From Candidatus Amesbacteria bacterium (lineage in GTDB: Bacteria > Patescibacteriota > Microgenomatia > CAZETR01 > Amesbacteraceae): DNA of 64,000 nt. The stretch is from the NCBI GenBank assembly GCA_027371535.1, contig DAHXMV010000001.1, positions 96,879-160,878 on the forward strand, read 5' to 3'. Below, piece after piece: positions 334 through 43,863 of this stretch. The notes beneath the pieces were generated by a model, which saw nothing but the letters and a program-made list of their open reading frames with translations, was not told the origin of the DNA and did no database searches. Position numbers and translations under genes: made by a program. The stretch's first letter is position 1, and the number at the start of each line of letters is the position of its first letter.

Positions 334-358
334 GACCCGGGCGGTGAGGTCAGGCCGG

Positions 359-2037: not shown

Positions 2038-2044
2038 AAATTCT

Positions 2045-3933: not shown

Positions 3934-4057
3934 AAATTATATCGTAGTCTCAATATATTAGATAAATTTACTTGTCTTCGGGTTAGATATACTTAGAAGG
4001 TATCATATCTAAAGATAGAATTATAATTGGCTTATATACAAAAAAGTGCATTTCAAG

Positions 4058-5359: not shown

Positions 5360-5381
5360 TTCAACAAACTTCTAAGAAAAA

Positions 5382-13802: not shown

Positions 13803-15436
13803 TTGAGAGCGACTGCTGTTAAAGCCGGCTGGCCGTCAGGATATTTAATGTCTCCCAGGTGCAATAGTCCGGCAAACCGGGTATCTTTGTCCGGCAGCTC
13901 ATACTGATCACCGATAAAAATCGTGTCTTTCTGGCCTCTCAGAGACGGCCAGAAAACAGGCATAAACCTGAATTGGGAAAAACCTGAAACCTGTCCCACG
14001 TCGCCATTGGGTCCGGCAATCAACCTGGCCTGTTTCTGATACCCGGCCGGGTTGATTTTGAGATAAAAAAGGAAAAAGATATAAGGCTGACCCAGCTTGT
14101 CAGTCATAACCACATGGTGATATTCAGAGAGATATGGTTTAATTAATTGAATCACGGGTTTGTAAGCCGAAACCCATTCCCGACTTGAGTAATAAGAGTT
14201 GTGAAGGTAATACATATCCAGATAAAGGACCAGAAATAATCCGACTAACAGTACATATGCCCCGGCCAAAAATTTGCGGTTTAGCAGACGGGAAATTCCA
14301 ATTCCGATAAAGATAGTGAGCGGAATTAGCATCGGTAAAGACCTGACTCCAGACACCAAATCCCGGGAAAAGGCAGACGGAACAGGAGCCAGGAACAACC
14401 AGGAAAGCAAAAAAACCGTGCTGCGGTTTAATTTCCTCAAAATATAAATTATTCCCATAAGCAAAGTGACCAGTTCAGGATAATAAAAATAACCCTGATT
14501 ATATTCAGCCAGACGCAAACTGGTCCAATCACCCTGAATAAATAAGAACCGGGGTGAAAAATGATTTAAATATCTCTGATAGACCCCTATCAGCTGATTA
14601 AGCAGTTCCGAATGAAAAAGAAAGTATGTCCAGTCTTTTGAGGCAGTGTGATCCTGGGCCAAAAGCCGGCTGACGTAATCGCCCCCCCGGGTGTAACTGA
14701 AAACACTGAAGACTTTTAACCGGCCGGACTGGGAAGCAAATCCCCAAATTATAGGTAAAAGGAATAAAGCTGAAACAAGCAAAGGGGTGATGATGCGGGT
14801 CAGTTTCAAATTACGGCGAAATATTAAAAGCAGGCTGAAAACAATTAATGGGGTAAATAATTTAGCACCCTGATAAGACCAGAAAGTCAGACCGAAAAAC
14901 AGAAAAGCCAATAGATAATGCCATCTGGATGCTGATTTATGTGCACGGATAAACAGGACTGCACCTAAAACGGTTAAAAACAGCGACAGGTTGGCCTCCC
15001 AGGCCCCCCGGGAAAAATGGATAGCCCAGGGATTTAAAGAAAGAACCAGGGTAGAAAGCAGCGCAGAAGAGGGATTTTCAGGATATAAATACCGCACCAG
15101 AAGAAAAATCAAAACGATCATTATCGTGCCGAAAAGAGCCGAAGGCAGCCGGGTGGAAAATTCGTTTAAATCCAAAAATTTTACCGAAGGGACGGTAAAA
15201 TAAATATATAAACCCGGTTTATAATCCCCAAACGATTTAAAGACAACCGGAGCCAACTGCCCGTATTCGTCCCTGCCCGTTCTTAACAGCGAATAGGCAT
15301 TGTAGCCGAGAGCCGCTTCATCCCAGGTAAATCCGGCAGGACGGATATTTAAGCCCACAACGCGCAATATCAGGCCTATAAAGATAATCAGTCCCAGTAA
15401 AACAAAATTCTTTTTCATATCAAATCTGTTTAACAA
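13799..15436 (-). CDS. GT39/PMT-like GT-C glycosyltransferase (family A paralog 2)
   Basis: 545 aa. 'WDEAALGYNAYSLLRTGRDEYGQLAPV...GDYKPGLYIYFTVP'. Tandem to paralog 1, about 60% identical across the conserved loop. Confidence 0.7.
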   Translation of the reverse strand: MLNRFDMKKNFVLLGLIIFIGLILRVVGLNIRPAGFTWDEAALGYNAYSLLRTGRDEYGQLAPVVFKSFGDYKPGLYIYFTVPSVKFLDLNEFSTRLPSALFGTIMIVLIFLLVRYLYPENPSSALLSTLVLSLNPWAIHFSRGAWEANLSLFLTVLGAVLFIRAHKSASRWHYLLAFLFFGLTFWSYQGAKLFTPLIVFSLLLIFRRNLKLTRIITPLLVSALFLLPIIWGFASQSGRLKVFSVFSYTRGGDYVSRLLAQDHTASKDWTYFLFHSELLNQLIGVYQRYLNHFSPRFLFIQGDWTSLRLAEYNQGYFYYPELVTLLMGIIYILRKLNRSTVFLLSWLFLAPVPSAFSRDLVSGVRSLPMLIPLTIFIGIGISRLLNRKFLAGAYVLLVGLFLVLYLDMYYLHNSYYSSREWVSAYKPVIQLIKPYLSEYHHVVMTDKLGQPYIFFLFYLKINPAGYQKQARLIAGPNGDVGQVSGFSQFRFMPVFWPSLRGQKDTIFIGDQYELPDKDTRFAGLLHLGDIKYPDGQPALTAVALK

Positions 15437-17006
15437 AAAGGGCGGGAGAACGGTCTAAAAAGTTTATCCGGTATAAAAGCCCCCCGTTTTTTATCTGATG
15501 ATCCGGACTGGTAACCACAATGGCGTGAATCCCCGGATCCCGCTTACTAACTATATCCGGCAACTCCCAATCGTTAACAAAACGGAATTTGGAAAAAGCA
15601 TCCACCCAGAACCAGTCATCGTGAAAGTTCCAGGCAAGACTTGCTGTGGTCTGATAATAACGGGGGTCGATACGCAGATACCAGAGGAAATATTCGTGCG
15701 GTTCACCGTACCTTTTAGTGACTATAATCCGGTCATATCTGTTTGAAATTGTGTTCAGATAAGAAGTCAGCTGTTGATAACCGTATTGCCAGCTGGCAGA
15801 GTATTTAACCGGATAATTGCTTAAAAAATCCGAGAAATAGAACCACACAAACAGACAGTAAACCCCGATAAAAAGCCCGCCCAAAACAAGATGAAATTTT
15901 TGCTGAAGACGTTTCCAGAAGTACCAGAAACCATAGACAGTGATTAAAAATACCACAGGCAGCATAGCGGTGGACCTGATGACAGCAAACTCGTCCCTGG
16001 TAACCGCAGCCGGAAGAGGCGAAAGCAGGATCCAACTTAAAAGAAAATATTTACGTTTTTTGAATAAAAGGTATAAACCAAAATAAAAGAAGGGCAAATC
16101 GGCCCAATTCATGACCCCGAATCCGGGTATGCTGTACTGATACTGAGTACCTCCGGATATAAATAAAAATGCCGGAGAAAAATATTGGAAATAATGCCGG
16201 ACGGCGGTGGTCATAAAATACACCGGCCGGTTTACCAGCAACCTGGTGAGTAATAACGGCAAAGGGCTATGGTTTCTTAATTGCTCCAAATAGGCTATGG
16301 CACCGGAATCCAATATCCCAACCCAGGAACTCCGGGCCCGGGTCTGGGGTAAAATGAGGATTCCCAATCCGAATATAATTACTGACAATGAGGCCAGAAA
16401 GACCCTGGTATTTTTAATAAATTTGGGGAGCAAAAAAATTAAAAACAGGGGAATAAATATCCGGGTGTTGTGATATGCAAACAAACTTAATCCCCAGATA
16501 ACCACCGCCCAAAAAGGCCTTTTAGCAAAATAAAGCGCCAGGCCCAAAGTAAGCAGCAGAACCGCCAGGTTTGATTGGAAGACCGCCCGGGAAGGAAAAA
16601 AAGTCCAGGGCTCAAAGGCAATAAACAAGCATAACAACAAAGCCGGAGCGGGCTTTTTGAAATAATAAAAACCGGCTAAAAAACCCAAAAGACAGGTTAA
16701 CACCCCTACCAAAGCCGGTACCATACGGACCGAATAATCTGTGGGGCCAAAAAGAAAAATCGGAACGACCGTCAGATAGGTATCCAGAACTGCCGGATAA
16801 TCCCCATAAGCGCGATAATTTAAAACCGGAAAAGGCACCCCCCACTGATCCCTACCGGTTTTTAACAGGGAATAAGCATTATAAGCATGGCTGACTTCGT
16901 CCCAATTTAAAGCAGGAGGCAAATCCACCAGCCGGTAAAACCGGATAAAGGCAGCGGAAAATAAAATTAATACCAGAATCAGCCAATACGTCTTTTTAGC
17001 AAACAT
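15420..17006 (-). CDS. GT39/PMT-like GT-C glycosyltransferase (family A paralog 3)
   Basis: 528 aa. 'WDEVSHAYNAYSLLKTGRDQWGVPFPV...YGDYPAVLDTYL'. Confidence 0.7.
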   Translation of the reverse strand: MFAKKTYWLILVLILFSAAFIRFYRLVDLPPALNWDEVSHAYNAYSLLKTGRDQWGVPFPVLNYRAYGDYPAVLDTYLTVVPIFLFGPTDYSVRMVPALVGVLTCLLGFLAGFYYFKKPAPALLLCLFIAFEPWTFFPSRAVFQSNLAVLLLTLGLALYFAKRPFWAVVIWGLSLFAYHNTRIFIPLFLIFLLPKFIKNTRVFLASLSVIIFGLGILILPQTRARSSWVGILDSGAIAYLEQLRNHSPLPLLLTRLLVNRPVYFMTTAVRHYFQYFSPAFLFISGGTQYQYSIPGFGVMNWADLPFFYFGLYLLFKKRKYFLLSWILLSPLPAAVTRDEFAVIRSTAMLPVVFLITVYGFWYFWKRLQQKFHLVLGGLFIGVYCLFVWFYFSDFLSNYPVKYSASWQYGYQQLTSYLNTISNRYDRIIVTKRYGEPHEYFLWYLRIDPRYYQTTASLAWNFHDDWFWVDAFSKFRFVNDWELPDIVSKRDPGIHAIVVTSPDHQIKNGGLLYRINFLDRSPALFVKQI

Positions 17007-18634
17007 AAGGGTGATAATAATAAACTAAACAGGCTAATATAATTACCAAGGCTTCTGGGCCAGGTATCAGAAAATACGGCGTAGATCTGATGGAACCCGG
17101 GGTCAAGCAAACGGAAACTAGTCAAACCGAGCAATCCCGAAGGTGAGGAGGCAACTGACCGGCCATCCACCAGCACATGCCAACCAGGAAAATAGGTAAT
17201 GGGCAAACTGACAACCGCCGGCGCCCGGGAAACATCGAGAAGATAATCAGCTGAAGAAGATTTCTTGACTGCTGAGACAGTCAGTCCGTCACCTGAGATA
17301 AACCGGGCGGAAACAGGGGCAAAATCCGCCGGCGGCTGGGGAGCTGACCGCGGCCAAAAATCGGTTAATGAAGAACTGCGGCCTTCATCCCACAACGGGC
17401 CGGAATACTGCTCTTTGTCCGTGATGTTTCTCCAGATATCCGGGCGGAAAAAATTGTAATTAATCAGAATTACCAATAAAATCAATAACACAGGCCACAA
17501 GCGGATGCCGGGCCAGTTAAAAAAACTGACGGCGTAGCCGGATGCCAGGGATAAAAAGAAGAGGGCCGGCCCTAAAAATCTCCAGGGAAACTGAATGTAT
17601 TTCATTAACGGGACCAGGTTCCAAATGACGGAAGACTTACCATGGGTGAGAAACAGAGCCGCCACTCCCAGAAGACAAAAAGTTAAGAAAGAAAAATTGT
17701 GTTTCTTCAGAATGAAACCAAGACAGATAATCACCAGGGGCAGGATCCAGTGCAGCTGGCCGATGGAGATACTGAGGAATTTTTTAGCCCATAACGAGGC
17801 CCCATATCCCCAGAAGCGGGAAATAAATAATTCGTTGAGAGTGGCGAAATGAATATGAAAATCATAATAGCCACTTACGGTACTACCCAGATCGATAAAT
17901 TTATTTTCAGCCAATACCGGCAGTAAATAGTAAGCGGATAAGCCCAAAGCTATAATTCCAACCAGTACTAATCCGGGAACGCCGGAAAAGTCGTGTCTAT
18001 GGACAGCACCGATCAGCCAGTACAAACCCAGAAAAGGTAAAAACATAAATACGGATAAATTATGGGTGGTAATTAAAAGCGCCAGGGACATAGCTAAAAG
18101 AAGCAAATAGCGTGAGGAATGTTTTTCCAAATAAAGATCCAGAAAATAAATCAGCAAAGGATATAAAACAAAAGACAGAGCCTCGGGTAACGCCCCCCTG
18201 ACCCAAACATCCACCGAGCGATAGGGGGCATAAAGGTAGAAAACCGCCGAGACCAAGCCGCCTTTATTTCCCCAGTATTTTCTGGCCAGGAGAAACATGG
18301 TGAAACCGGAAAGCAGCAGGGATAAACCGTAGACAATTTTGGCGGAATCCAAAAGCGACAGACCGGTAAAATGGACAAGTTCAGTCAGCCAGTAGGGAAA
18401 TTGGGCATAATAGTTGAACAAGGGTTCACCATAACCTTTTCCGGAATCGGCTGCCCACCGGCAGGGAAAAACACGGTCCTTTATACACTGATCAAACTCC
18501 TTCATTCTGAAGAGGTGAGGGTCGTGCATGGTAAAGATTCCCGACCTGACCATCAGAGAAAAAGTCGGCAGGGCCAATACCACCAAAACCGCCAAAAAAC
18601 GCAGAGTTTTCATCCTAAGGTCCATTATACTCAA
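16979..18634 (-). CDS. YfhO-like polytopic membrane protein (family B GT-C candidate)
   Basis: 551 aa. N-terminal motif 'MHDPHLFRMKEFDQCIKDRVFPCRWAADSGKGYGEPLFNYY' is shared with the proteins at 50782-52419 and 59829-61535. It resembles the YfhO-family 'HD..FHL.R...G.FP....GYG...FY' opening. Confidence 0.45.
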   Translation of the reverse strand: MSIMDLRMKTLRFLAVLVVLALPTFSLMVRSGIFTMHDPHLFRMKEFDQCIKDRVFPCRWAADSGKGYGEPLFNYYAQFPYWLTELVHFTGLSLLDSAKIVYGLSLLLSGFTMFLLARKYWGNKGGLVSAVFYLYAPYRSVDVWVRGALPEALSFVLYPLLIYFLDLYLEKHSSRYLLLLAMSLALLITTHNLSVFMFLPFLGLYWLIGAVHRHDFSGVPGLVLVGIIALGLSAYYLLPVLAENKFIDLGSTVSGYYDFHIHFATLNELFISRFWGYGASLWAKKFLSISIGQLHWILPLVIICLGFILKKHNFSFLTFCLLGVAALFLTHGKSSVIWNLVPLMKYIQFPWRFLGPALFFLSLASGYAVSFFNWPGIRLWPVLLILLVILINYNFFRPDIWRNITDKEQYSGPLWDEGRSSSLTDFWPRSAPQPPADFAPVSARFISGDGLTVSAVKKSSSADYLLDVSRAPAVVSLPITYFPGWHVLVDGRSVASSPSGLLGLTSFRLLDPGFHQIYAVFSDTWPRSLGNYISLFSLLLSPLCLLKRRIG

Positions 18635-18636
18635 AG

Positions 18637-20247
18637 CTAGGGGGATTTTTCAGCCAGGACAATAGCCGGAGTGTCATCGGGATATCTGGCGGCGACGAAG
18701 TAAGTGATTGACGCGGGAAAATCTTCCGGACGGCCGACATATAATGTGGGAACATATACGGGATCGGGATAAAATAAATTACCAAAGCGAAAATTACTGA
18801 GTTTATAACCATCATACTGATCCAGGAATTTGTAACCCTGGTTTTCAAAATCCGACCAGTCGGGAGTAGAAGCCTGAAAAAATCGGGGGTCAGTCCGGGT
18901 ATAAAATGCCAGGTAGATCTGGGGTTCGGAAAGGGATCTTGAAAAACGTATTTCCGGGTAGTCAGGAGCGGCCTTTAATATCCGGGGAAGTGCCTGCAAC
19001 CAGCCATAACCCATAGCCTTGGCAGAAACCAACGGCAGCTTTTGTGTATACGTAACCGTAAAAGCGCCGAAGGAAACCAACAGGGCAATTAAGAACAAAC
19101 CTGTCATCAGTCCTTTACGGCCGGCTAAAGAATCTAAATAAATTCCGCCGCCGACGGCGGATAATAACACCAGCGGGATAATCATGACTGCGGACCGATT
19201 GGCAGCAAAACCGGGTCCCTTGGTTAACGCAGCCGGGACAGGGCTTATAAAAAGCAGAAGGAGAATAAAGAAATATATTTTCCCGGGCTTCTGGATAAAC
19301 TTAACCAAAAAAATCATTAACAGAGGAAATTCAATTAAATAAATTACACCCAAACCCGGTAGCATGCCATAGGTGGCTTCTCCGGGACCGGAAAAAAACA
19401 GAAAATCCGGAGAAAAGTAAGTCAGATAATTTTTAATAAAAACCGGTAAGGCAAAGGTGAGTTTGTTGTAGAGTAACTGAGCCAGCGGCCCCGGCCAACC
19501 GGACTGAACTGCAACCCTGTGGTATAAAGACATCGACTGCCATTTGTCAGGGGGATTAAAAATGGAGATATCATATGATCTGGGATTTAAGAAGATTAAC
19601 GAATAAAAAGCTCCGCCGGAAAGAATTAAAAATATAACCCAAGTGAGAAATATTTTCATTTTCGGGATATAAATGACTGAAAGTCCCAACAATATCAAGG
19701 GTGTCAATAACCGGGCAGAATGATAGGAATACATGCCCAGGGCCAAAATTAAAGCCCCTAGGTAAGGTCTTTTATAAAAACACAGAGCCATCCCCAAAAG
19801 AACAAAAATCACCGCTAAATTTGCCTCAAAAGCCCCCCGCGAAAGAGATATATACCAGGGAGAAACAGTCAAAAGCAAAGCAGCTAATAATCCTGTAGTA
19901 TGACCGAGAATTTTGACTGTTAACAGATAGATGACCAGGATAGCCAAAAAGCTTAAAATGGAGTTTGGCAAGCGGGTGGAAAATTCATTCAAACCAAAAA
20001 ATCGGATTGCAGGCACGGTCAAAAAGCTATACAGAGGCAGTTTATAGTCGCCATATGATTTCAACCCGGTTACCGGCAATTTCCAAAAAGCAGTCCCCCA
20101 TTCATCCCTACCAGTCTTTAAAAGGTTATATGCATCATAACCGAAGGTGGCCTCGTCGGGGGTAAAACCAAGCGGAAATTTATCCAGCCATAAAAATCTG
20201 GTCAGACAAGCCAGAACTATGATCAATATAAAAATGAAACAGCGCAT
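18637..20247 (-). CDS. GT39/PMT-like GT-C glycosyltransferase (family A paralog 4)
   Basis: 536 aa. 'TPDEATFGYDAYNLLKTGRDEWG...YGDYKLPLYSFLTVP'. Confidence 0.7.
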   Translation of the reverse strand: MRCFIFILIIVLACLTRFLWLDKFPLGFTPDEATFGYDAYNLLKTGRDEWGTAFWKLPVTGLKSYGDYKLPLYSFLTVPAIRFFGLNEFSTRLPNSILSFLAILVIYLLTVKILGHTTGLLAALLLTVSPWYISLSRGAFEANLAVIFVLLGMALCFYKRPYLGALILALGMYSYHSARLLTPLILLGLSVIYIPKMKIFLTWVIFLILSGGAFYSLIFLNPRSYDISIFNPPDKWQSMSLYHRVAVQSGWPGPLAQLLYNKLTFALPVFIKNYLTYFSPDFLFFSGPGEATYGMLPGLGVIYLIEFPLLMIFLVKFIQKPGKIYFFILLLLFISPVPAALTKGPGFAANRSAVMIIPLVLLSAVGGGIYLDSLAGRKGLMTGLFLIALLVSFGAFTVTYTQKLPLVSAKAMGYGWLQALPRILKAAPDYPEIRFSRSLSEPQIYLAFYTRTDPRFFQASTPDWSDFENQGYKFLDQYDGYKLSNFRFGNLFYPDPVYVPTLYVGRPEDFPASITYFVAARYPDDTPAIVLAEKSP

Positions 20248-20825
20248 ACAATCAGCCCGGCACAGAATACGAACAGGATTAAAAAAGCGGCTAAAAATTT
20301 AAAATCCAACACTGATTTAACCAGACCATTTACTTCAGCCTGCAGAACCTGAATGCGCAGAGTGGGAAAATAATAGGTTTGATAAGAAATATTGCCTGAA
20401 GATACACCCACACCAATGGCTTCCCGGGTATCCGTCCCGGGGGATTCCAGCCTTATTTGAAAAGTCTGTCCGGCAGAATCGGTAATGGGTGAAAACTGAA
20501 ATCTGACTGAATCCCCGTCACCCACATTATAACCATTCAGGGATATCCGGCGGATAATTTTGCCGTTTTGCAGAAGATAAAAAAACAACGGTTTTTGATT
20601 TCTCAGCCCCACATTTTTTAAATAGATGGTGACTACATTCAGTCCGTCATGTCCGGGGTAGATATCCTGATCCACCGGGTGATTTTTTGAAATCCAGATA
20701 AATTCATCCGACCGGGGTTGTCCGGTATCCGGTAAACGCCTGATAAACAGAGACAGGCTGACGGCAAACAAAACAGGCAGTAAACAATAAACGAGAGCGA
20801 TAAGCCAATATTTATTCTGAAGCAT
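20223..20825 (-). CDS. Bitopic membrane protein: N-terminal and C-terminal TM helices flank an extracytoplasmic domain of about 140 aa. Unknown function.
   Basis: 200 aa. N-terminal 'YWLIALVYCLLPVLFAVSLSLFI' and C-terminal 'FLAAFLILFVFCAGLIVCAVSFLY' hydrophobic helices. Confidence 0.4.
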   Translation of the reverse strand: MLQNKYWLIALVYCLLPVLFAVSLSLFIRRLPDTGQPRSDEFIWISKNHPVDQDIYPGHDGLNVVTIYLKNVGLRNQKPLFFYLLQNGKIIRRISLNGYNVGDGDSVRFQFSPITDSAGQTFQIRLESPGTDTREAIGVGVSSGNISYQTYYFPTLRIQVLQAEVNGLVKSVLDFKFLAAFLILFVFCAGLIVCAVSFLY

Positions 20826-22062
20826 ATGATTTCCAAAGAAAATAAGTGAGCCAGATTCCGGATCCAGTCAGTATTGCCTGAAACAAACCCTGAAGCAGCC
20901 AGGGGTCAATAAATAATTTGATCATTTCCGAAAGAGCGGGAAACATTACCGACTGGGAATTTAAAGGACTGAATAATCCCAGGAAAACATACTGGTCCGG
21001 CGTTAACCAACTGACGGCAAAATAGCTTAATAAACAAATATATATCAACCACCTTCGGGAAGACGGCAGACGGGTCCATAACAGGGCTATAAAAGGCATG
21101 CTCCAGACAATCCACTGGGCATGAAACGGAGATAATAGAATAACGTAAAAAGTCGTGACCAAAAACTCCGGAGTGACGTCTGATCTTTGACGACTAAACC
21201 AGGAATAAACAAGCATCAGAGCGTAAACCAATACGTAATAAGGGATCCTCTGAGTCGGGCTGACTTCCAGACCGGAAATAAATATACCCTGCATTAAATT
21301 TGAATGCGTCATTGTATAGCGATAATCGTTGGAATTCAAAACCGGTAACATAGGGAAAATAAAAGCCGTTATAAAAGCCATAGCCGAGATAATAAATTGT
21401 TTGAGATTCCGGGATCTGAATAACAGAAATGGCATCAGTAATAATGGGTATGTTTTCAGGGCAGCCCCCAAGCCTAAAAGCAGTGCGGCACAGGAATTTT
21501 TACGGTCTTTAATTAAATAAAGCGCAGCCACCGTCAGGAAGGCGCAGACGATATCAAACTGGCTTAGCATATAGACGGCATAGAGGGTAACAGGATTGTA
21601 AAACCAAAAAATTATCAAAAGGCGCCGGTGTTTCTTTTCCGTGATAAATTTGGCGAGCAACAAACCGCATGCCAAATCAAATAACAGATAAGGTAACTTG
21701 AGTACCAGCATTATTTCAAACATTCGGGAATTAAAATAACCAAGCGGACCCCAGTCGTTCAACCATGAACCCAGGGTTTGGGGGCCGATTATCCAACCGG
21801 CTATTTTGTCCCAGCTGCCTAAAAAGTAGTACGCCAAAGGCGGATAGTTGAAGCTGTCGGTGTACGGCAGACGGGCTTTATTTTGCCCTATAAACGAATA
21901 AATATCGGCAATCCCCCGGCTCAAAAACTGGGCGTGGAAATGCTGGCTTTTAATATCGGGGTGAAAAAAGAAAGCGGCAAAAATCAGACGGATAATTAAA
22001 GCCGGAATCAGAATATTTAACCAGGGTGAATCAATTCTGACTTTCATTGAAATAGACAGCAA
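20812..22062 (-). CDS. GT87/DUF2029-like polytopic membrane glycosyltransferase candidate (family C)
   Basis: 416 aa. After TM1: 'HPDIKSQHFHAQFLSRGIADIYSF...NYPPLAYYFLG'. This is the D...F.A...G...Y plus YPPL pattern shared by four paralogs in the window. Confidence 0.45.
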   Translation of the reverse strand: MLSISMKVRIDSPWLNILIPALIIRLIFAAFFFHPDIKSQHFHAQFLSRGIADIYSFIGQNKARLPYTDSFNYPPLAYYFLGSWDKIAGWIIGPQTLGSWLNDWGPLGYFNSRMFEIMLVLKLPYLLFDLACGLLLAKFITEKKHRRLLIIFWFYNPVTLYAVYMLSQFDIVCAFLTVAALYLIKDRKNSCAALLLGLGAALKTYPLLLMPFLLFRSRNLKQFIISAMAFITAFIFPMLPVLNSNDYRYTMTHSNLMQGIFISGLEVSPTQRIPYYVLVYALMLVYSWFSRQRSDVTPEFLVTTFYVILLSPFHAQWIVWSMPFIALLWTRLPSSRRWLIYICLLSYFAVSWLTPDQYVFLGLFSPLNSQSVMFPALSEMIKLFIDPWLLQGLFQAILTGSGIWLTYFLWKSYASE

Positions 22063-23314
22063 TCCAGGAATACCAGGAAATAAATAAGATAATGACTGCG
22101 CTCACAATTGTAACCCAGGCGGAGACCAGAGGAACCAACACCGGAATATCCGGAAACCACCACTGATGGTACATATTAATCAGGTGGGCGAGCGAGACCA
22201 GAAAATAAATCGGCCAAAGTTGCCGGTTTTTAGAAGCCGAGATGGCCATAAAAGGCAAAACAGGTGCCAGATATCGCTCATGCATCCGGGTCAGAAACAT
22301 GAATGAGGTGAAAGCCAGGAGGCCAAACAAATTAATCAGAGCGGTATTTTTGCGGGAGACCAAAAATCGGGAAAAAAGGATGGCCGTCAGACATATAAAT
22401 ATCAATTGCCCGAACAAACTGGCGGAAATACCGCGGATAATTTCGACCGAATCAGAAATTTTTGCCAAATGGCTGAACAAAGCCCAAAGATTAAAAGCGT
22501 GATCGGAAATATAATCGGAACCGGAGCCGGTCTGGAAACGATTAATGTAGACAGAGACAGGATAAAAAAGGTTATCCGTATGCCAATTAATAAAAGGCAG
22601 GTAAGCCGCATAAAAAAGCAGACACTGGAGGACCAGACCCAGCAGGGTTTTCCGCCAGCCGACTTTTTTTATACTGAATACGGCAAAAACGGGAAAAAAT
22701 AAGAGCGAGGATTGCTTAAACAACAAAGCAGCCATAAATGAAGCGTGGGCAGACAGATATTTATTATGCAATAACAGCCAGACAGCCAGTAAAACAAAGA
22801 ATACAGGTACGGATTCCAGCTGTCCCCAGAGGGTGCTGTTATAAAACACTGAAGGATTGAATAAATACAGACACATGGCTCCAAAAGCTGCCGGTGACTT
22901 AACATTAAAAATGGTTTTAGCCAGCAGATAAATCAAAATACCGATACCAATATCGGAAAAAATGGAAACAATTTTGTGAAAAGCGGGTAAAACATTCTGA
23001 TTTTCAAAAAAGAAAACCAAAAATGACGGAGACAAGTGGATATTAACCCGAAAATGAACGAAGCGGACAAGAGAATTCAAATTATTAAACAACCAATGGG
23101 AGGTCACAAAAGAATAAAGCGCCAGGGGCGGATAAGTTGGCTGCATCACATGGCTATATGACCGGTCGTAAGCACCGGAAAAACCGGATTCCAAAATACC
23201 CGCCGACCAGGCGATATGATTGTTTACGTCCCCGCTGTAAATTGATGTGGACAAGTATATCCGTAATCCCAAGGCCAAAATTACTGCCAGAAGAATATTC
23301 ACGGGGTGTTTCAT
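22031..23314 (-). CDS. GT87/DUF2029-like polytopic membrane protein (family C)
   Basis: 'SGDVNNHIAWSAGILESGF...PTYPPLALYSF'. Start at 'MKHPVNILLAVILALGL' (rc ATG at 23312-23314) gives a 4-nt overlap with the upstream gene. The ORF-track start at 23410 would overlap by 100 nt. Confidence 0.45.
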   Translation of the reverse strand: MKHPVNILLAVILALGLRIYLSTSIYSGDVNNHIAWSAGILESGFSGAYDRSYSHVMQPTYPPLALYSFVTSHWLFNNLNSLVRFVHFRVNIHLSPSFLVFFFENQNVLPAFHKIVSIFSDIGIGILIYLLAKTIFNVKSPAAFGAMCLYLFNPSVFYNSTLWGQLESVPVFFVLLAVWLLLHNKYLSAHASFMAALLFKQSSLLFFPVFAVFSIKKVGWRKTLLGLVLQCLLFYAAYLPFINWHTDNLFYPVSVYINRFQTGSGSDYISDHAFNLWALFSHLAKISDSVEIIRGISASLFGQLIFICLTAILFSRFLVSRKNTALINLFGLLAFTSFMFLTRMHERYLAPVLPFMAISASKNRQLWPIYFLVSLAHLINMYHQWWFPDIPVLVPLVSAWVTIVSAVIILFISWYSWIAVYFNESQN

Positions 23315-24924
23315 GATTTGGTCACCAGGTAAAATATCGGCTGATTCAGAGGGTTGGTACTGGTAAATAAAACTTTTACACCGCCCGGGGGATTTTTTCT
23401 CCAATCCCAATCACCGGCAACGTTATCCCGCTGACTGACCACATACAGGTCTCCGGGAATCAGGACATCGGGAATGGATTTACCGGGAGGTAAGGAAAAA
23501 TTTCCGAAATAATATTTCGGGGCCAGGAAAAAGCCATAATAATCGGGGGCGATTCCGCTTTTGGGCTGATCCAAAGTGAAATTCCGCTGAAACTCCGCCG
23601 GCGGATAACGGGAATAGAACAGGAAACGGATCAGGGAAGGTTCGTAGGTGTTATTGATAAACACCCGGGGATATAAAGGAGCCAGTCGGGCGACCTGGGT
23701 CATGGCGGTTTTAAAGCCGACATGCCACCAAATCCAGGTTCTTTGTGAATAATGGTTAAGATAATAGTTTGCCGCCTGGACAAATTGATAAGAAATAACA
23801 AGCCAGATTATCAGGTAGACGAATATTTTTACCGGACGGCGGAAAAAATTGACGGAAGTTATTATACCTGTACCGACAGCTACCGAAAGCGGAGGGATCA
23901 TCATAAATAGTCGGGTAGCATGATAAGCTCCGTCATAAGTCAAAGCTGCCGGGACAGGGGCCAAAAGCAACCAGGACAGCCAGAGATATTGCCGTCTTTT
24001 AATCATAAACACCAGGCCGAGGATGAGAAAGGGTGCCCAAACCGGCAATAACTCACCGATATACTGGAGACTTTGCCGGGCTGTGGGGTCTCCCCGGATA
24101 AACAGGAATTCGGGGGAAAAAGCCGACAGATAATTCGTGTAAATTTTCTGGGCGATGACGACGGGTTTATTGGAAAACCATCTTTCCCAGAAACCGGGGT
24201 TTTCCCGGCGGAAATTGAATATCTCATCGGTAATTTCCCGGTTATTAAACAAGCCCACCTTACCAAACCGCTCGGCGGCATGGCCTGAAAACAGGGAAAT
24301 TACAAAAGGCAGTATCAACACAACCGGCAACAGACTGACCAATTTAATTTTAGGTTTGTAAAAAACGCCCAGACAAACAAGCCATAACGGGGTAAAGACG
24401 GTGGCGGTGCTGTAGATATACGGCGTCAGAATGAAAAACAGACCCGCCATAAAATACTGCCGCCTGATAAATAACAGGGTACCCAAAAGTTCAAAATCCA
24501 AAAGCAGAACGGCTTCGAATGCCGCCCGGGAATAGAGAATATGCCAGGGCATTAAAGATAAAGCCAGGGATGAGATCAGGGACAGAGAACGTTTATGGGA
24601 AAGCTGATACACAAGCAAAAATAAGATGACAGGCGACAGAGTTCCCAGGACGACCTCAGGACCCCGGACGCCCCATTCGGTATTATTAAAAATAAAAATT
24701 GCGGGGACGGTGTAATACATCAGCAAAGGAGTCCGCCATTCTGACAGGGAATGGATATAGGTGGGAAATAACTGACCGTATAAATCCCTGCCGGTATGCA
24801 GGAGGGAATAAGCCTGATAACCGACATCAACTTCGTCCCCGAACAGTTCGGGCGGTAAAGATGAGACTGCATATCCCCGTATGAGGCCTGAAAACAGAAG
24901 CAGTAAACTTAAAATCAAACCCAT
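23311..24924 (-). CDS. GT39/PMT-like GT-C glycosyltransferase (family A paralog 5)
   Basis: 'FGDEVDVGYQAYSLLHTGRDLYGQLFPT'. Start chosen at 'MGLILSLLLLFSGLIRG', where TM1 begins as in the paralogs. Alternative upstream ATGs lie at 24975 and 24960. Confidence 0.65.
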   Translation of the reverse strand: MGLILSLLLLFSGLIRGYAVSSLPPELFGDEVDVGYQAYSLLHTGRDLYGQLFPTYIHSLSEWRTPLLMYYTVPAIFIFNNTEWGVRGPEVVLGTLSPVILFLLVYQLSHKRSLSLISSLALSLMPWHILYSRAAFEAVLLLDFELLGTLLFIRRQYFMAGLFFILTPYIYSTATVFTPLWLVCLGVFYKPKIKLVSLLPVVLILPFVISLFSGHAAERFGKVGLFNNREITDEIFNFRRENPGFWERWFSNKPVVIAQKIYTNYLSAFSPEFLFIRGDPTARQSLQYIGELLPVWAPFLILGLVFMIKRRQYLWLSWLLLAPVPAALTYDGAYHATRLFMMIPPLSVAVGTGIITSVNFFRRPVKIFVYLIIWLVISYQFVQAANYYLNHYSQRTWIWWHVGFKTAMTQVARLAPLYPRVFINNTYEPSLIRFLFYSRYPPAEFQRNFTLDQPKSGIAPDYYGFFLAPKYYFGNFSLPPGKSIPDVLIPGDLYVVSQRDNVAGDWDWRKNPPGGVKVLFTSTNPLNQPIFYLVTKS

Positions 24925-25819
24925 TTCTGATATTATAACTGTAGTGGTATCAGTAATCATTATTTCCTTTAACACAAAGGAAATTACCCTAAAATGCCTG
25001 GATCATCTGCTGGCATCGGAAGGAGCGGATCTGGAAGTCATTGTGGTGGATAACAGTTCATTTGACGGATCGGCCGAAGCAATTGCCGAAAAATATCCGC
25101 AAATAAAGCTGGTCGTTAATAAAAAGAATACCGGTTTTGCCAGGGCAAATAATCAGGGCATGGGACTGGCTAACGGGGAATATTTGCTTTTGTTAAACAG
25201 CGACTGTTTTGTGGATAAGGATACAATTAAAAAGATTCTGGCCTCCGATTACGTGCTGAATAACAGCGACGTCATAGGGATCAAATTATTAAATACCGAC
25301 GGCAGTATTCAACATACATTCGGCTATTTTCCCACATTATTCAGGGTCATCGCTCTCATGTTGTTCATAGATAACCTGCCGATAGCCAGAAATTTTTTTA
25401 AATCCATTCATGTCAGGGATAATAACCGGTATTTGACCACCCATGAAGCAGACTGGGTAATGGGAGCTTTTGTATTTTTAAAACGCCGCGTCTGGGAAAA
25501 TACGCGGGGTCTGGATGAAAAATATTTTATGTATGGGGAAGAAATGGAATGGATGTACAGGATAAAAGCCGGAGGGATGACCATTAGGTATTTCCCGGGC
25601 TCAAAAGCATATCACATCGGAGGAGCAAGTTCGCCGAACAAAGCCCCGGCAATTATCGGCGAAATGGTCGGCTGGAAGTACTGGTTTGGCAAATACTACC
25701 CCCCCTGGCAGCAAAAAATACTGCCTTTTTTTATTATCTTCGGCTGCATGCTGAGGATGGTGTTTAAGCCAAAACTGGGCAGGTTTTATCGGGAAGCTAT
25801 AGGAAAAATTCGCAGTTAG
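24881..25819 (+). CDS. GT2 family glycosyltransferase (rhamnosyltransferase-like)
   Basis: 'VVVSVIIISFNTKEITLKCLDHLLAS...EVIVVDNSSFDGS...LNSDCFV'. The 5' end is ambiguous: ATG 24881 overlaps the divergent minus-strand gene, and an in-frame GTG at 24944 is a possible alternative start. Confidence 0.7.
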   Translation: MRPENRSSKLKIKPISDIITVVVSVIIISFNTKEITLKCLDHLLASEGADLEVIVVDNSSFDGSAEAIAEKYPQIKLVVNKKNTGFARANNQGMGLANGEYLLLLNSDCFVDKDTIKKILASDYVLNNSDVIGIKLLNTDGSIQHTFGYFPTLFRVIALMLFIDNLPIARNFFKSIHVRDNNRYLTTHEADWVMGAFVFLKRRVWENTRGLDEKYFMYGEEMEWMYRIKAGGMTIRYFPGSKAYHIGGASSPNKAPAIIGEMVGWKYWFGKYYPPWQQKILPFFIIFGCMLRMVFKPKLGRFYREAIGKIRS

Positions 25820-26958
25820 GGTGAAACCGTTGGAGTAGCTGACGGACTGGCAACGGGAGCCGGTGTGGAGGTGAGAAATGTTTCAGGTACTGCCGACGGA
25901 GTGGCTAGCGGATGGTTGACAAACAAACCCGAGGCATTACCCGGGATCAGTAAAATACGCCTGGCTAATACAGAATCCGGACCGGTAGTATCGCCGACAG
26001 CGATTAACCGGCTCCCGACTGTAATCTCTGCCAGGCTGATAGCGGTATTTTTGAAGGTAAATATGGTATGGGTATCGGTAAGCACTGTGAATTGGCGCCC
26101 GGCCCGAGTCGGATGAGTCAGAGTGACAGTCAAACCATTCACCGCCGTAACCACACCCTGTACGGCCCGTCTTTTGGACATCAACAGCCGGGCTGAATCG
26201 GTAGCACTGGCAAAAAATACTTTTAATGCAGCACTGTCAGAGGCTATAATAATCGCCTCGTGTTCAGCTTTAATCAGACTGCTTTTGATCGGTTTGTTCT
26301 TTTCGTCGACAAAAATTGTCCGTTTATCCACTTTGAGATTTTTCATTTGCTGACCCGGGTTTTCCCTGACCTGGATGTTATCAGAGCTGAATGAAGAAAT
26401 TTCACCTCCGATTACAGGATTGGTATGCCGGAATTTAGAAGTATCGGTTGTGGCACCCAAAACCTGTGAATTATAGGCAATAACCCGGGTAAGGGTGGTT
26501 TCCCGGCCATCGGAACCCATGGCAGTTACTATCAAAGTATTCAACCCCCCCGTCAGGGTCAGGGCAGCGGTAAATTTACCTGCAGAATCACTTATGACTG
26601 CGGCATCAGAAGTGTCGGTATACATCGCCACAGGCGTATCGGGGGCAGTATTACCGGTGACTACCAGCTGACCGGAGTCGACCACTGACATGTCCTGCGG
26701 ACCGGCAATGTCCAGAAACAGTTGGGGAGAAACCGGGGCAGGGGAAGGTTTGGGTAATTGGATCACTGCCGTCGGTGACAAGGCGGGGGTTTTGACGGAA
26801 AAATACATATAGGAAATACCAGCTGCACAGATTAAACAGAACATTGCCAGCGACAGAAAAAATTGCAATGGCGTCAGTGTTTTTTTTAAACCGGAAGGAG
26901 GGGCAGTTGCTACAGCGGAAGACGGAACCGAAGCCACCGGCGGGTCAGGTTTCTCCAT
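25816..26958 (-). CDS. Membrane-anchored Pro/Ser/Thr/Ala-rich surface protein, a candidate glycoprotein
   Basis: 380 aa. N-terminal low-complexity 'PPVASVPSSAVATAPPSG', then TM 'FFLSLAMFCLICAAGISYMYF', 'PKPSPAPVSPQ', a beta-rich T/S/G-rich body, and C-terminal 'TSTPAPVASPSATPTVSP'. Confidence 0.5.
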   Translation of the reverse strand: MEKPDPPVASVPSSAVATAPPSGLKKTLTPLQFFLSLAMFCLICAAGISYMYFSVKTPALSPTAVIQLPKPSPAPVSPQLFLDIAGPQDMSVVDSGQLVVTGNTAPDTPVAMYTDTSDAAVISDSAGKFTAALTLTGGLNTLIVTAMGSDGRETTLTRVIAYNSQVLGATTDTSKFRHTNPVIGGEISSFSSDNIQVRENPGQQMKNLKVDKRTIFVDEKNKPIKSSLIKAEHEAIIIASDSAALKVFFASATDSARLLMSKRRAVQGVVTAVNGLTVTLTHPTRAGRQFTVLTDTHTIFTFKNTAISLAEITVGSRLIAVGDTTGPDSVLARRILLIPGNASGLFVNHPLATPSAVPETFLTSTPAPVASPSATPTVSP

Positions 26959-27040
26959 GTCTACACGTTACAAAAACAAAAAGGGATTGTCAACCTTAAT
27001 CTTCCTTATGTAAAAAATCCTATAGATTTGTACGGTAGGC

Positions 27041-27057: not shown

Positions 27058-27504
27058 ATGGCAGATTACGAACGATTCCGAAACCCATTCTCTCCAAACA
27101 AACGAAAGGAGGACGTCAAAGAGGTTTGTGTACGTTTTAGTGAGAGTATAACCAAATTTAAAAATCATTTGGCAAACAGACAAGTGGTAAAAACGGAAAT
27201 AAAAGATAAAAACTGCTCTTTAGTATCTGCGTCCATTGAAGGTATGGACGCACGGGTTGAGGGGCAGGAAATCTGGCACTTTCCCGATGTGACAAGGGTG
27301 ATTACCCGTTTGGCTAATAATCACATTACCCTGAGAAAACAATTGGCTGAATTGGAAATTGATAAAGTCAGGGAGATTGTCGGGGATAAGGGGGACGATG
27401 ATGCCCTGGCAGCGGACACCAGAATGCTGGCAGAAGATTTATGGAAAATCTGTTATTACCAGAATAAATTGGCAATAAAAGAGCGAGGAGTGAATCTAAA
27501 ATAG
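27058..27504 (+). CDS. Hypothetical soluble protein of 148 aa. It is charged and probably cytoplasmic.
   Basis: No TM segments and no recognisable motif. It lies alone on the plus strand between two minus-strand operons. Confidence 0.45.
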   Translation: MADYERFRNPFSPNKRKEDVKEVCVRFSESITKFKNHLANRQVVKTEIKDKNCSLVSASIEGMDARVEGQEIWHFPDVTRVITRLANNHITLRKQLAELEIDKVREIVGDKGDDDALAADTRMLAEDLWKICYYQNKLAIKERGVNLK

Positions 27505-30020: not shown

Positions 30021-30670
30021 TTTGGTTTGCGGGCTTTAATTAACAAGAGCATACCAAGAATAAAAGTGTGAATCCTGATATCGGCGAAACCGCAGGCATG
30101 CATCAAATCCGGAAGTTTTGAACCGGAAAAAAAATTTAAATGAGTTTCGTTCCAGATTTTTCCCCGGGTTTTAAGCCAAACCGGCCAGCCTAATTTAAAT
30201 AGCCAATTTTCCGAAGGCACAAGCACCAAAACAAAGCCACCCGGTCTGAGAATCCTATAAATCTGATTCATAACATGACGGGCATCCGGGATATGTTCCA
30301 GGGCTTCCAGAATGTAAACGGCCGCAAACCTGCCGGAGGTAAAATTTAATTTTTGGGCATCTGCCACCCGGAAGACGAGCGATTTGTTTTTTTTATAGCG
30401 CCTATTGGCATAGGCCACGGAACTTTGTAAAACATCGATGCCGATAACTTTCCGGGCCCGGGTAAAATCAAGCAACCGCTTCGTAAAATACCCGTCTGCA
30501 GAGCCGATATCCAATATTTCACCGGCCACGGGTTCGGAATATTTCCCAACTTCCGATATCCTCCTGGAGTGCCAGTAACGCTGCAGCAGATTGTCGCGGA
30601 CCGAGGTTTCATACCAGTCCGGGGGCACCCGTTCATGCAGCTTGGCGGCGGAAAAATTTGCTGAGTCCAA
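30017..30670 (-). CDS. Class I SAM-dependent methyltransferase
   Basis: Motif I 'ILDIGSADGYFTKRL', post-I 'VIGIDV', motif II-like 'FAAVYILEALEHI'. Confidence 0.65.
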   Translation of the reverse strand: MDSANFSAAKLHERVPPDWYETSVRDNLLQRYWHSRRISEVGKYSEPVAGEILDIGSADGYFTKRLLDFTRARKVIGIDVLQSSVAYANRRYKKNKSLVFRVADAQKLNFTSGRFAAVYILEALEHIPDARHVMNQIYRILRPGGFVLVLVPSENWLFKLGWPVWLKTRGKIWNETHLNFFSGSKLPDLMHACGFADIRIHTFILGMLLLIKARKPK

Positions 30671-32927
30671 AGATAGTCATCAGAGAAATAATGCTGACGG
30701 ACGCTCCAATTTTAATTGAATCCGGCTCGTAAGTAAATTCAACCCGGTGACTGCCGGAGGGCAGTATAACCGCCTGGAAGGCGTAATCCGCCCGGTAAAT
30801 TTGCACCGGATTTCCGTCTACTACCGCTTGCCAGCCGGGATAATCCTCCTGTGTATTTAAGAGAATGGCCGGGGCGGGCAAGTCCACCGCGAATAATTGG
30901 TTACCCGGAATATCAGACAAAAGCTTAAGACTGCCGTTATTTGTAGTGCCGGCGAGCTTGACTCCCGGATTTTCTTCTAAAACTACCAGACGTTTTGAAT
31001 CAAACCGGGGGTCCTGCAACCGGCTGATTATATTGTCTTCTCCTTTAATCACCTCATATCCGGTTATCAGGGAAAATTCCGGAAGAGCCTGCAAATTACG
31101 GTACACCCGGACAGTTTTGTAGGCAAAAACCTGTTCAAACTTGGGCAGACTGAAGCGCGGATAAGGAACGCCTGCCGGGTCGGGTAAACCGTCCGGGCGG
31201 CGGTTTAAGGCCAGAATATAACCGTTACCTGCAATGTCAAAGAGCGGAGAAGCGTAATTCGTCACATCATTGAAGCGGCCTTTGGGACGATAAATACTTC
31301 CGTAATCCAGGGCAGATTCGTAACGCGACCAGAGACCCGGATATACGGCGTCGTATCCGCTTCCCGATTTCAGGCCGTAAGCCATCCAAACGCTTAAAGG
31401 CAGAACATCACCCCCATCGAGCCGGTAACCAGGATGAGCTTTTAAATAATCCGTTATTTTTGTCGGAGGAAAAATCAGTCTATCCGGGAAAAAAACATTA
31501 TATTTCCATCCAAAACGGAAAAGTTCGGCAGTAACTTCCAACACCAGAAGAACCAAGACAATATTTTTCAATTTGGGAACCATGGTTATCAAAAAGACAG
31601 AAAAATAAGCGGTAATAACGAAGATCGTGGGGAAAAACAGGTTGCGCAAAGCGATTATTTTCTCCGGACCGGTCCTCACATCAGCCGCCCAGGCAAAACC
31701 AACAATGATGAATAATGGTAAAAGCAGGTACTTTAACTGACTAAAACGAAAAGCAACCGACCGACTGAGTACGTCTGTGCCTGCTGCCGCCAGAACTGCC
31801 AGTGAAAACCCGGAAAAAACCATGATCCGGGTCATGACTGAAGCGGAAAACACGGGCAGCTTCTGAATAAAAAAGGAGGCCGGGGTCGGAAGTGACAGGA
31901 ATACGGGAAGCAGATATAAACCCGCAAAAAAATACTTATCGCGGCGGCGGGATAATACCAAAGCCAGGAGTCCCAGCACCAAAGCTACTGCTGATGCATA
32001 ACCGGTATTATTGGTATATTGCACTCCGCCCCAGACGTTGTATGTGGAAGGGTTGCCGAAATAATCAGGTGCTATTAGGGTAATAAGCTGGGATACAGGA
32101 TAAAACGCACCGGATTTACTGCCGCCTGCCAGAGACTCGCCTACCCGCTGAGACCGGCTGAAGAGTTCAAAGCCCGGGACCAGAAGCAGGCCCGCCAGAC
32201 CCAGGCCCAGTAAAACCGTCAATATATATTTATAAAGCGGGGCAAATGTAATCCTGGTCCGGCCCCAGAGCACCCAGAAACCTAAGAAGATAATGGTATA
32301 TAAAGAAATCTGGGGATAACCGGCAAACAGCTGAGCTGCCAGAACCACCGCAGCCATCAGCCACCGGCGGCGGCCGACCAGCAAAAACAGTAAGGGAATA
32401 TATGCCGCTACATAGCCGTGGATGCCGTATTCAAGCCAGAGGAGGTTAAACCCGCAAAAAGCGTAAACTACAGCTCCGAGAACAGAGGCGATTTTGCGGA
32501 TGCCGAGAGTACGCAGGAAAAAGTACATAAACAACAAAGCCAGCAGAGGCTGAGTGGCTATGTAGAGCGTCCAGGCAACCGGATTGGAAAAGAACATGAA
32601 GTACAGATTAAAGGGATTGAGAACCCCGGACTGGAATGTAGCCAGGAGGGGGTAGCCATTGAAAATCATGGGGTTCCAGGTAGGAAATTTACCTGATCTG
32701 AATAATCCCATGGAGAAGATTTTCAGCGGGTAAAACAATGAGGGAACGTCGGCCAGCAGAGGATTTTTAACCGGGACGCCGGCAGGAAAACCGGGCCATT
32801 TGTAGTCGAGCCAGGGGTAATAGACTCCGACAATATGATCTCCGGGCATGGGTATTTCCCCGTATATCCAGGAGCGGTAAAAAAACACTGCTACTAAAAA
32901 AATGAACAACAGGAATATTTTCTTCAT
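30633..32927 (-). CDS. Large (764 aa) polytopic membrane protein with a C-terminal extracytoplasmic domain of about 250 aa. GT-C/YfhO-like candidate.
   Basis: About 14 TM segments in the N-terminal 500 aa (N-terminus 'GDHIVGVYYPWLDYKWPGFPAGVP'). The C-terminal 250 aa are hydrophilic. Confidence 0.45.
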   Translation of the reverse strand: MKKIFLLFIFLVAVFFYRSWIYGEIPMPGDHIVGVYYPWLDYKWPGFPAGVPVKNPLLADVPSLFYPLKIFSMGLFRSGKFPTWNPMIFNGYPLLATFQSGVLNPFNLYFMFFSNPVAWTLYIATQPLLALLFMYFFLRTLGIRKIASVLGAVVYAFCGFNLLWLEYGIHGYVAAYIPLLFLLVGRRRWLMAAVVLAAQLFAGYPQISLYTIIFLGFWVLWGRTRITFAPLYKYILTVLLGLGLAGLLLVPGFELFSRSQRVGESLAGGSKSGAFYPVSQLITLIAPDYFGNPSTYNVWGGVQYTNNTGYASAVALVLGLLALVLSRRRDKYFFAGLYLLPVFLSLPTPASFFIQKLPVFSASVMTRIMVFSGFSLAVLAAAGTDVLSRSVAFRFSQLKYLLLPLFIIVGFAWAADVRTGPEKIIALRNLFFPTIFVITAYFSVFLITMVPKLKNIVLVLLVLEVTAELFRFGWKYNVFFPDRLIFPPTKITDYLKAHPGYRLDGGDVLPLSVWMAYGLKSGSGYDAVYPGLWSRYESALDYGSIYRPKGRFNDVTNYASPLFDIAGNGYILALNRRPDGLPDPAGVPYPRFSLPKFEQVFAYKTVRVYRNLQALPEFSLITGYEVIKGEDNIISRLQDPRFDSKRLVVLEENPGVKLAGTTNNGSLKLLSDIPGNQLFAVDLPAPAILLNTQEDYPGWQAVVDGNPVQIYRADYAFQAVILPSGSHRVEFTYEPDSIKIGASVSIISLMTIFGLSKFFRRQAA

Positions 32928-40860: not shown

Positions 40861-40875
40861 CAATTAATAATGTAA

Positions 40876-43855: not shown

Positions 43856-43863
43856 AATCCAAA

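Follow-up and report, generated by a model that had tools for sequence, protein, structure and literature searches.

A membrane-tethered envelope protein of Microgenomates with a family-wide Pro/Thr/Ser-rich tail, a candidate O-glycosylation region

The 64,000-nucleotide stretch of a Candidatus Amesbacteria genome analysed here (the window) holds an island of glycoconjugate genes and, on its reverse strand at 25816..26958, a gene with an ATG start for a 380-residue protein whose homologues align with it end to end. We find that this is a membrane-tethered envelope protein, with its N terminus inside and its C terminus outside the membrane, and that it is the fused form of its family, the parts of which are encoded in other genomes by two adjacent genes. 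It closes with a disordered Pro/Thr/Ser/Ala tail that could be a region of O-glycosylation. An earlier note on this DNA had proposed the protein as an acceptor substrate of the glycosylation machinery encoded around it. The explanation that we consider best, and to which we give an even chance of being right, is a tethered envelope protein whose tail, if glycosylated at all, is served by a general system. Of the architecture, export and family membership described below we are highly confident.

A tethered envelope protein and its family

A full-length AlphaFold2 model, built on a 33-sequence family alignment (mean predicted local distance difference test, pLDDT, of 79.8), comprises one transmembrane (TM) helix at residues 30-54, three beta domains at residues 82-162, 182-250 and 263-341, and disordered segments at residues 12-25, 167-178 and 354-372; a second model, of residues 175-350 and based on 75 sequences, reaches a pLDDT of 90.3. 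All coordinates within the gene refer to the reverse strand. The short cytoplasmic N terminus (residues 1-30, 26869..26958; pLDDT ~50) is rich in Pro, Ser and Ala and ends in conserved lysines (KK25-26). The single TM helix that follows, a signal anchor (residues 31-53, 26800..26868), has a 19-residue Kyte-Doolittle (KD) maximum of 2.09 and a counterpart in nearly all family members, and no second hydrophobic segment of the protein rises above KD 1.6. Thus the open reading frame (ORF) with one TM anchor stands exactly as the earlier note described it. Beyond the helix lies an extracytoplasmic Pro-rich linker (residues 54-81, 26716..26799; 27% Pro over residues 55-80; pLDDT 65-77), in which PKPSPAPVSPQ occupies residues 69-79, directly past the TM helix.

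The first folded domain (residues 82-162, 26473..26715; pLDDT 84-96) is an immunoglobulin (Ig)-like beta-sandwich resembling Glucodextran_B (Pfam PF09136). On the protein itself this Pfam match is marginal (E = 6.4e-6; 26.4 bits against a cutoff of 27), and homologue P0151 carries PF09136. Domain B of glucodextranase (1ug9) is the only sequence match in the PDB (E = 0.005) and is also the top structural match by Foldseek (E = 8.7e-6), which aligns the domain with Ig-like domains of glucodextranase, adhesins, GbpA and glycosidases. A flexible interdomain linker (residues 163-180, 26419..26472; pLDDT below 50 at residues 167-178) marks the point where the gene is split in other genomes.

Two oligonucleotide/oligosaccharide-binding (OB)-fold barrels make up the rest of the folded body. 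The first (residues 181-252, 26203..26418) is called OB-fold-like from the model of the C-terminal half and from tandem OB matches in Foldseek. The second (residues 253-348, 25915..26202) corresponds to DUF5666 (Pfam PF18914) and closes with the family signature described below; residues 267-335 match PF18914 at E = 1.7e-3 (19.0 bits against a cutoff of 27), and precomputed PF18914 matches exist on homologues P0002, P0028 and P0152 and at the P0008 locus. The two barrels align with each other weakly but in register (hhalign E = 0.0026), whereas an Ig-versus-OB control does not align. Against the PDB, the C-terminal half retrieves S1 D3-D4, Mpa, Unr cold-shock arrays, LysRS anticodon domains, CcmE and YobA. 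Charge divides along the same domain boundaries: across 33 members the median net charge is -10 for the Ig domain and +6 and +5 for the barrels, and the window protein carries -6 on its Ig domain and +5 on its second barrel. Within the OB tandem, His282 and Arg317 are invariant and Arg263 and Arg288 near-invariant. What the earlier note called a T/S/G-rich beta body is indeed beta, and is refined here to three discrete folded domains.

An exhaustive HMMER profile search of 1.84 billion cluster representatives returned 3365 proteins at E < 1e-3 and 129 at E < 1e-30. These fall into full-length forms of 365-480 residues and shorter forms of roughly 250-290 and 140-190 residues. Word-indexed homologue searches were swamped by low-complexity Pro/Thr (PT) words and gave 3 and 5 matches only. 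A scan of GTDB species genomes yielded 20 loci, mostly from Daviesbacteria, Gottesmanbacteria, Roizmanbacteria, Shapirobacteria, Amesbacteria or metagenome-assembled genomes (MAGs) of Microgenomates. Loci L011, L012, L015, L016, L021, L022 and L025 lie in MAGs titled 'uncultured Gammaproteobacteria' or 'Pseudomonadales', titles that are probably taxonomic mislabelling of bulk-submitted bins. A protein identical to that of the window is on public record (P0001; NCBI, ENA and Logan assemblies). Its own clade is sparse, with only P0002 (40% identity) and P0003 (35%); profile A1 retrieved no relatives from genome contigs and, from metagenome contigs, L003's contig again and nothing else, and a search for related loci with profile A2 gave no conserved stretch. 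Homologues, a confident fold and a conserved architecture led us to drop the reading of 25816..26958 as not a gene.

Twelve of these loci encode the family as a pair of neighbouring same-strand genes; in the 9 where ORF calls permit reading, the gap or overlap within the pair is at most 9 nucleotides. The N-terminal half consists of the TM anchor, the Pro-rich linker and the Ig domain, ending in ...YDS, and the C-terminal half of the two barrels and the PT tail. From the existence of the fused form it would follow that the halves work together, and to judge from these gene arrangements the Ig half and the OB-and-tail half probably act as a complex.

The split form also informs topology. Because its C-terminal halves carry signal peptides of their own, the OB-and-tail module is exported and the fused protein is oriented N-in, C-out: relatives of the C-half type have a classical signal peptide in 64 of 65 cases, with a basic n-region, an h-region starting at median residue 8.5 and ...A-x-A/K-like ends. 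A cytoplasmic location of the Pro/Ser/Thr-rich segments, which the earlier note had given as grounds for abandoning its proposal, is thus not what we find for the linker and the tail. Its description of P/S/T/A-rich ends holds for the linker (residues 69-79) and for the C terminus (residues 363-380, TSTPAPVASPSATPTVSP), with the refinement that the first 25 residues, also rich in Pro, Ser and Ala, lie on the cytoplasmic side of the helix.

A distant split subfamily (L020, L022, L023, L024 and L025) occupies a conserved housekeeping block, the pair lying at ~7150-8570 in L020, L022 and L023, at 3582-4834 in L024 and at 3188-4389 in L025. Upstream and divergent are genes for DnaB and a metallo-beta-lactamase (MBL)-fold hydrolase; downstream are genes for a class II synthetase paralogue resembling histidyl-tRNA synthetase (HisRS), of ~305 or ~420 residues, and for an EamA transporter. 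Such a setting suggests that in that lineage the pair belongs to the core genes and is inherited vertically. A two-component or ATP-binding cassette (ABC) transporter neighbourhood had been supposed for this subfamily from gene sizes and was dropped on the Pfam assignments of the neighbours (MBL-fold hydrolase, DnaB, HisRS-like and EamA).

Composition and conservation of the tail

The tail of the window protein (residues 349-380, 25819..25914) holds 11 Ser/Thr and 25% Pro and is modelled at pLDDT 43-50, below 50 throughout residues 354-372. Pro, Ser, Thr and Ala together make up a fraction of 0.75 of the tail, 0.58 of the post-TM linker and 0.34 of the folded body. Among 55 ORFs of the window, this protein alone has a 15-residue stretch with at least 70% Pro, Thr and Ser, and shuffled window proteomes contain a mean of 0.04 such proteins. 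When its own residues are shuffled, such a stretch arises in 226 of 5000 trials (4.5%), so the single-sequence signal is only modest. No tandem DNA repeat was found under the PT tail.

The family-wide conservation of tail composition is, on comparison of the sequences, stronger evidence than this single-sequence statistic. The last strand of the second barrel carries a near-invariant signature, (A)(K)RIH(V)IPGKATG(V/I)F(K)K.P, in 60 of the first 152 proteins (the window has a divergent version, ARRILLIPGNASGLF), and across the family a low-charge tail with (T/S)P(S/T)A periodicity begins at a fixed offset past it. Family tails have a median length of 47-49 residues with ~16 Ser/Thr each, and usually end in ...TP. 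Their pooled composition is 20% Thr, 18% Pro, 15% Ser and 10% Ala; composition is kept and sequence is not. C-terminal sorting of the LPXTG/sortase, PGF-CTERM or similar kinds was excluded, since none of 143 family tails has a hydrophobic C-terminal anchor (no 17-mer above KD 1.6).

Outside the family, comparable PT stretches occur in only 5 of 261 proteins of related loci, in each of which the stretch links a folded domain to a TM helix at the C terminus. PT stretches in exported neighbours (L007, 459..1415; L009, 4786..6030; L019, 2314..4121) stand ahead of a TM helix at the C terminus or separate Cys-rich modules. Judged by sequence, envelope proteins of these genomes generally make use of PT spacers.

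Glycosylation genes and competing explanations

The island contains more than 20 large polytopic ORFs resembling glycosyltransferases of fold class C (GT-C) in 64 kb, nine in a row on one strand, with dense stretches at 12183..24975, 39289..46972 and 50782..61535. Their Pfam matches include PMT_2, PMT, GT87, Alg6/8-like, PIG-V-like and YfhO families, and several have none. Many genes for glycosyltransferases of families 2 and 4 (GT2 and GT4), two Wzx-type flippases, methyltransferases and an acyltransferase are also present. A YfhO-family GT-C lies 3.7 kb from the gene for the tethered protein (30633..32927, reverse strand; Pfam E = 3.8e-16, 59.1 bits against a cutoff of 28.5), with weak matches to PgfM1/M2 far below equivalog cutoffs. 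Three small soluble GT2s (5708..6370, 53921..54673 and 59082..59792; 220-250 residues, with no or one TM segment by a simple KD count) have PpgS, AglJ, PgfS, ArnC and DPM-like families as their best NCBIfam matches, at 53-76 bits against cutoffs of 325-529, and are candidates for supplying the GT-C array with lipid-linked sugars.

The earlier note had treated the neighbouring enzymes as GT39/protein O-mannosyltransferase (PMT)-type, a label that our searches weaken. PMT and PMT_2 Pfam scores on the island GT-Cs are 23.6-40.7 bits, just above cutoffs of 22.7-26.1, and the syntenic GT-C-like polytopic protein of 554 residues (23311..24975, reverse strand) has no Pfam or PDB match, its only NCBIfam match being Agl23-like (E = 0.003). 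No solved structure was matched by sequence, either with three single GT-Cs or with profile A5, made from 8 GT-C sequences (six window paralogues and two homologues from other loci). In the first loop, the family consensus of these enzymes shows a D/E motif like that of GT-Cs, in which Asp47 is invariant. The window enzymes are best described as GT-C-like, and PMT-type only loosely.

In the explanation we favour, an uncleaved N-terminal signal anchor would insert the protein N-in, C-out. Outside the membrane would follow the Pro-rich spacer, the Ig-like domain as an acidic 'stalk', the tandem OB folds as a basic module and the ~32-residue disordered tail of (T/S)P(S/T)A type; in split lineages the anchored Ig half would tether the secreted OB-and-tail half at the membrane surface. 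The basic OB module may bind an anionic envelope polymer or glycan, and the tail may be an extended, protease-exposed spacer that is O-glycosylated after export. Glycosylation would take a lipid-linked route like that of streptococci, in which a small GT2 makes a polyprenyl-phosphate sugar and a GT-C transfers the sugar outside the membrane. Since candidate enzymes for this route (the YfhO protein, PMT_2, GT87 and other GT-C proteins, and the putative lipid-sugar synthases) are encoded in the window, the mechanism would be available to the protein. That the tail is glycosylated at all we regard, on analogy, as a tentative proposal that is rather more likely to be wrong than right. Because position in the island is not a conserved family trait, any glycosylation would be the work of a general system and not of dedicated enzymes.

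Several observations weigh against this explanation. The flippases, GT4s and acyltransferase mean that the island may build a surface polysaccharide and not glycoproteins. The OB matches are generic and at fold level only, with TM-scores of 0.2-0.35. Charge at the N terminus gives a weak positive-inside signal (net +1; family median -1), and the anchor may be cleaved. Housekeeping genes surround the distant split subfamily. The family gene has a GT-C as its immediate neighbour in 3 of ~15 fused-form contexts and in 0 of 12 split-form contexts, and such adjacency is also missing from L027-L031. Large polytopic genes account for 5 of 38 genes within two genes of fused forms against 30 of 118 farther away; for split forms the counts are 2 of 44 and 4 of 87. 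GT-C genes stand beside the family no more often than the background frequency of large polytopic genes in these loci would give. The earlier proposal is partly supported, by the exported, disordered and conserved tail and by the candidate enzymes in the island; its specific tie to this island, with a GT-C adjacent in only 3 of ~27 contexts, is not.

The PT segments might instead be unmodified flexible spacers or wall-spanning 'bristles', the gene being a passenger at the edge of a surface-polysaccharide island, which we judge somewhat unlikely. The exported proteins of L007, L009 and L019 use PT linkers purely as spacers before a TM anchor; the genomic contexts of the family are variable; the Wzx flippases, GT4s and acyltransferase are typical of polysaccharide loci; and the gene lies at the boundary of the synteny block common to the window and L002. 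A free C-terminal tail, however, has nothing to space, and the conserved ~16 Ser/Thr and the (T/S)P(S/T)A periodicity with its fixed start suggest that the Ser/Thr hydroxyls matter. Moreover, exposed Ser/Thr-rich disordered regions in monoderms need glycosylation for protection from proteases (PMC12041528).

The immediate neighbourhood bears on a narrower proposal, that the protein is the dedicated acceptor of the neighbouring GT-C and GT2 and that its linker and tail are O-glycosylated by adjacent PMT-like enzymes. We consider this unlikely, and have equally little expectation that the protein is functionally tied to the adjacent GT2 or GT-C. The topology is compatible, and the arrangement in L002 fits: 20 nucleotides after the L002 homologue (40% identity), on the same strand, comes a 69%-identical orthologue of 23311..24975, followed by an orthologue of 22031..23410. 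In addition, the L005 homologue abuts a PMT_2-type GT-C and the L008 homologue a DUF2079-type polytopic protein. Nevertheless, these adjacencies are confined to the minority of contexts counted above; the window's GT-C partner is kept by one close relative only; and the L005 GT-C is a different paralogue, whose best window match is 15420..17006 (25% identity). The lack of sequence matches to solved PMT or ArnT structures also counts against dedicated PMT-like enzymes. The check that the earlier note had suggested, for PT-rich proteins beside GT39-like genes in related genomes, turns out negative at the level of the family and positive for the nearest relative only.

At its 3' end the gene meets a GT2 (24881..25819, forward strand; Pfam Glycos_transf_2, E = 5.6e-24), whose ORF end overlaps the stop codon of the tethered protein by 4 nucleotides, as the earlier note had observed. 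Because the two are convergent, they are not co-transcribed. This GT2 is missing from the position in L002, the closest syntenic relative, and because the L002 homologue directly precedes the GT-C orthologue, the window GT2 can be read as an insertion into an L002-type arrangement. Elsewhere the neighbours of the family include a transposase, major facilitator superfamily transporters, DsbB with an ABC transporter, glycoside hydrolase family 130 enzymes, a P-type ATPase and histidine kinases. In L003 an rve-family integrase/transposase gene (253..1269) lies directly upstream of the P0003 homologue.

Highly improbable, in our assessment, is that the protein is an accessory ligand-binding subunit and not a substrate; its membrane-tethered Ig and tandem-OB domains would then bind nascent glycan or an anionic wall polymer, which they would hand to a GT-C or take over from one. 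In its favour, binding of oligosaccharides or polyanions is a classic role of OB folds; the OB tandem is basic throughout and holds the invariant and near-invariant His and Arg residues named above; domains similar to the Ig-like one occur in enzymes that act on glycans and in surface proteins that bind them; and L002 has an operon-like arrangement with two GT-Cs. Against it, the GT-C linkage is not conserved and the OB fold matches are generic.

Gene starts and other features around the tethered protein complete the local picture. Directly ahead of its gene lies a promoter-like element read from sequence, TTGACA-17 nucleotides-TAACGT, with the ATG 6 nucleotides after (26956..26993, reverse strand). 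Counterparts precede the family genes in L008 (7885..7922) and L002 (9946..9982), so that all three genomes have a strong -35 element (TTGACA or TTGACT), a spacer of 17-18 nucleotides and an A/T-rich -10-like hexamer 6-9 nucleotides before the ATG. In none of the three is a Shine-Dalgarno sequence present upstream of that ATG, and this pattern suggests that their family-gene mRNAs are leaderless. In L002 the arrangement would shift the start codon to 9980. A scan for consensus promoters and terminators around the gene gave background levels and did not pick up the TTGACA-TAACGT element.

For the convergent GT2, the public gene call starts at 24944 (291 residues), which is more likely than 24881; that of the divergent 554-residue GT-C starts at 24924 (537 residues). 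The longest-ORF models of these two genes overlap head to head by 95 nucleotides (24881..24975), and the public calls leave a divergent spacer of 19 nucleotides (24925..24943), too short for two conventional leadered promoters. Divergent from the tethered protein lies a gene for a 148-residue soluble orphan with no Pfam or NCBIfam family (27058..27504, forward strand), which is not conserved beside family members elsewhere. Positions 1..6000 of the window have a GC content of 0.32-0.38, against ~0.45 elsewhere in the window, and encode an Acyl_transf_3 acyltransferase, a GT2, a GT4, a methyltransferase and a Wzx-type flippase; they may be a horizontally acquired glycan-modification cassette at the island edge. 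No tRNA gene was found in the 64-kb window.

Precedents and implications

The best precedent for the tail, by analogy, is the lipid-linked route of streptococci. There, extracytoplasmic Ser/Thr-rich disordered regions are glucosylated by GtrB and the YfhO-family GT-C PgtC2 (Rahman et al. 2025, PMC12041528), and the Pgf system adds N-acetylgalactosamine to such regions (PMC12041528). These regions are often C-terminal on membrane-associated proteins, beside folded domains, and glycosylation shields them from proteolysis; clients include PrsA, PBP1a, LytR, PknB and FtsQ (PMC12041528). Like these clients, the window protein is a membrane-tethered exported protein with a disordered Ser/Thr-rich C-terminal stretch after a folded domain, outside the membrane, and, as in the GtrB, PgtC2 and Pgf systems, the same region of the genome has genes for a YfhO-family GT-C and for small GT2s that resemble polyprenyl-phosphate-sugar synthases. 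The differences are also clear. The tail is Pro-rich with (T/S)P(S/T)A periodicity and not poly-Ser/Thr; its Ig and tandem OB/DUF5666 domains are unrelated to those of the clients; and the host belongs to the Candidate Phyla Radiation (CPR). Matches of the window GT2s and YfhO protein to streptococcal PgfS and PgfM are far below equivalog cutoffs.

Substrates of actinobacterial PMTs (GT39), such as Mycobacterium tuberculosis Apa/MPT32 and the PT linkers of cellulases, offer a looser analogy. They too carry Thr and Ser in Pro/Ala-rich, unstructured segments near the termini of Sec-exported proteins, and PMT/PMT_2-type Pfam matches occur among the neighbouring GT-Cs as in actinobacterial systems, but these are marginal. 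In contrast to those systems, the syntenic GT-C has no PMT match, no solved PMT was matched by sequence, and the lineage is another.

Among proteins with related folds, DUF5666 proteins share the match of the second barrel to PF18914; to a plain DUF5666 the window protein adds an Ig-like stalk, a second, degenerate barrel and a PT tail. In the literature that we searched, DUF5666 is mentioned in expression or proteomics tables only. CcmE (8ce8_E) and Bacillus subtilis YobA (4qy7) likewise place an OB barrel outside the cytoplasm, behind an N-terminal anchor or signal peptide and ahead of a flexible C-terminal tail, but the similarity is at fold level only (E ~0.025), and the window protein differs in having no haem-binding HxxxY, tandem barrels and a PT-rich tail.

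The window protein is thus an uncharacterised envelope protein of familiar parts: an Ig-like stalk, an OB/DUF5666 module and a PT-rich tail. To our knowledge, almost nothing has been established experimentally about the cell envelope of Microgenomates and the CPR, nor about why small genomes hold many GT-Cs, and our literature search found nothing on glycosylation in Microgenomates or Patescibacteria. The boldest reading of our data joins two claims, that the family is a major general acceptor of an undescribed protein O-glycosylation system in Microgenomates and the CPR, and that it forms an obligate two-subunit envelope complex; we think it improbable that both are right. If they were, the (T/S)P(S/T)A tail would be a glycosylation module and the large GT-C repertoires would act partly on proteins, while the complex would consist of an anchored Ig stalk and a secreted tandem-OB glycoprotein binding an anionic wall polymer.

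What is new and most useful here is how large the family is, that its tail is conserved and that its genes come in split and fused forms. From these two forms a specific interaction between proteins can be predicted, and a widespread, easily recognised family with an exposed Ser/Thr/Pro tail provides a concrete test substrate for protein glycosylation by GT-C enzymes.

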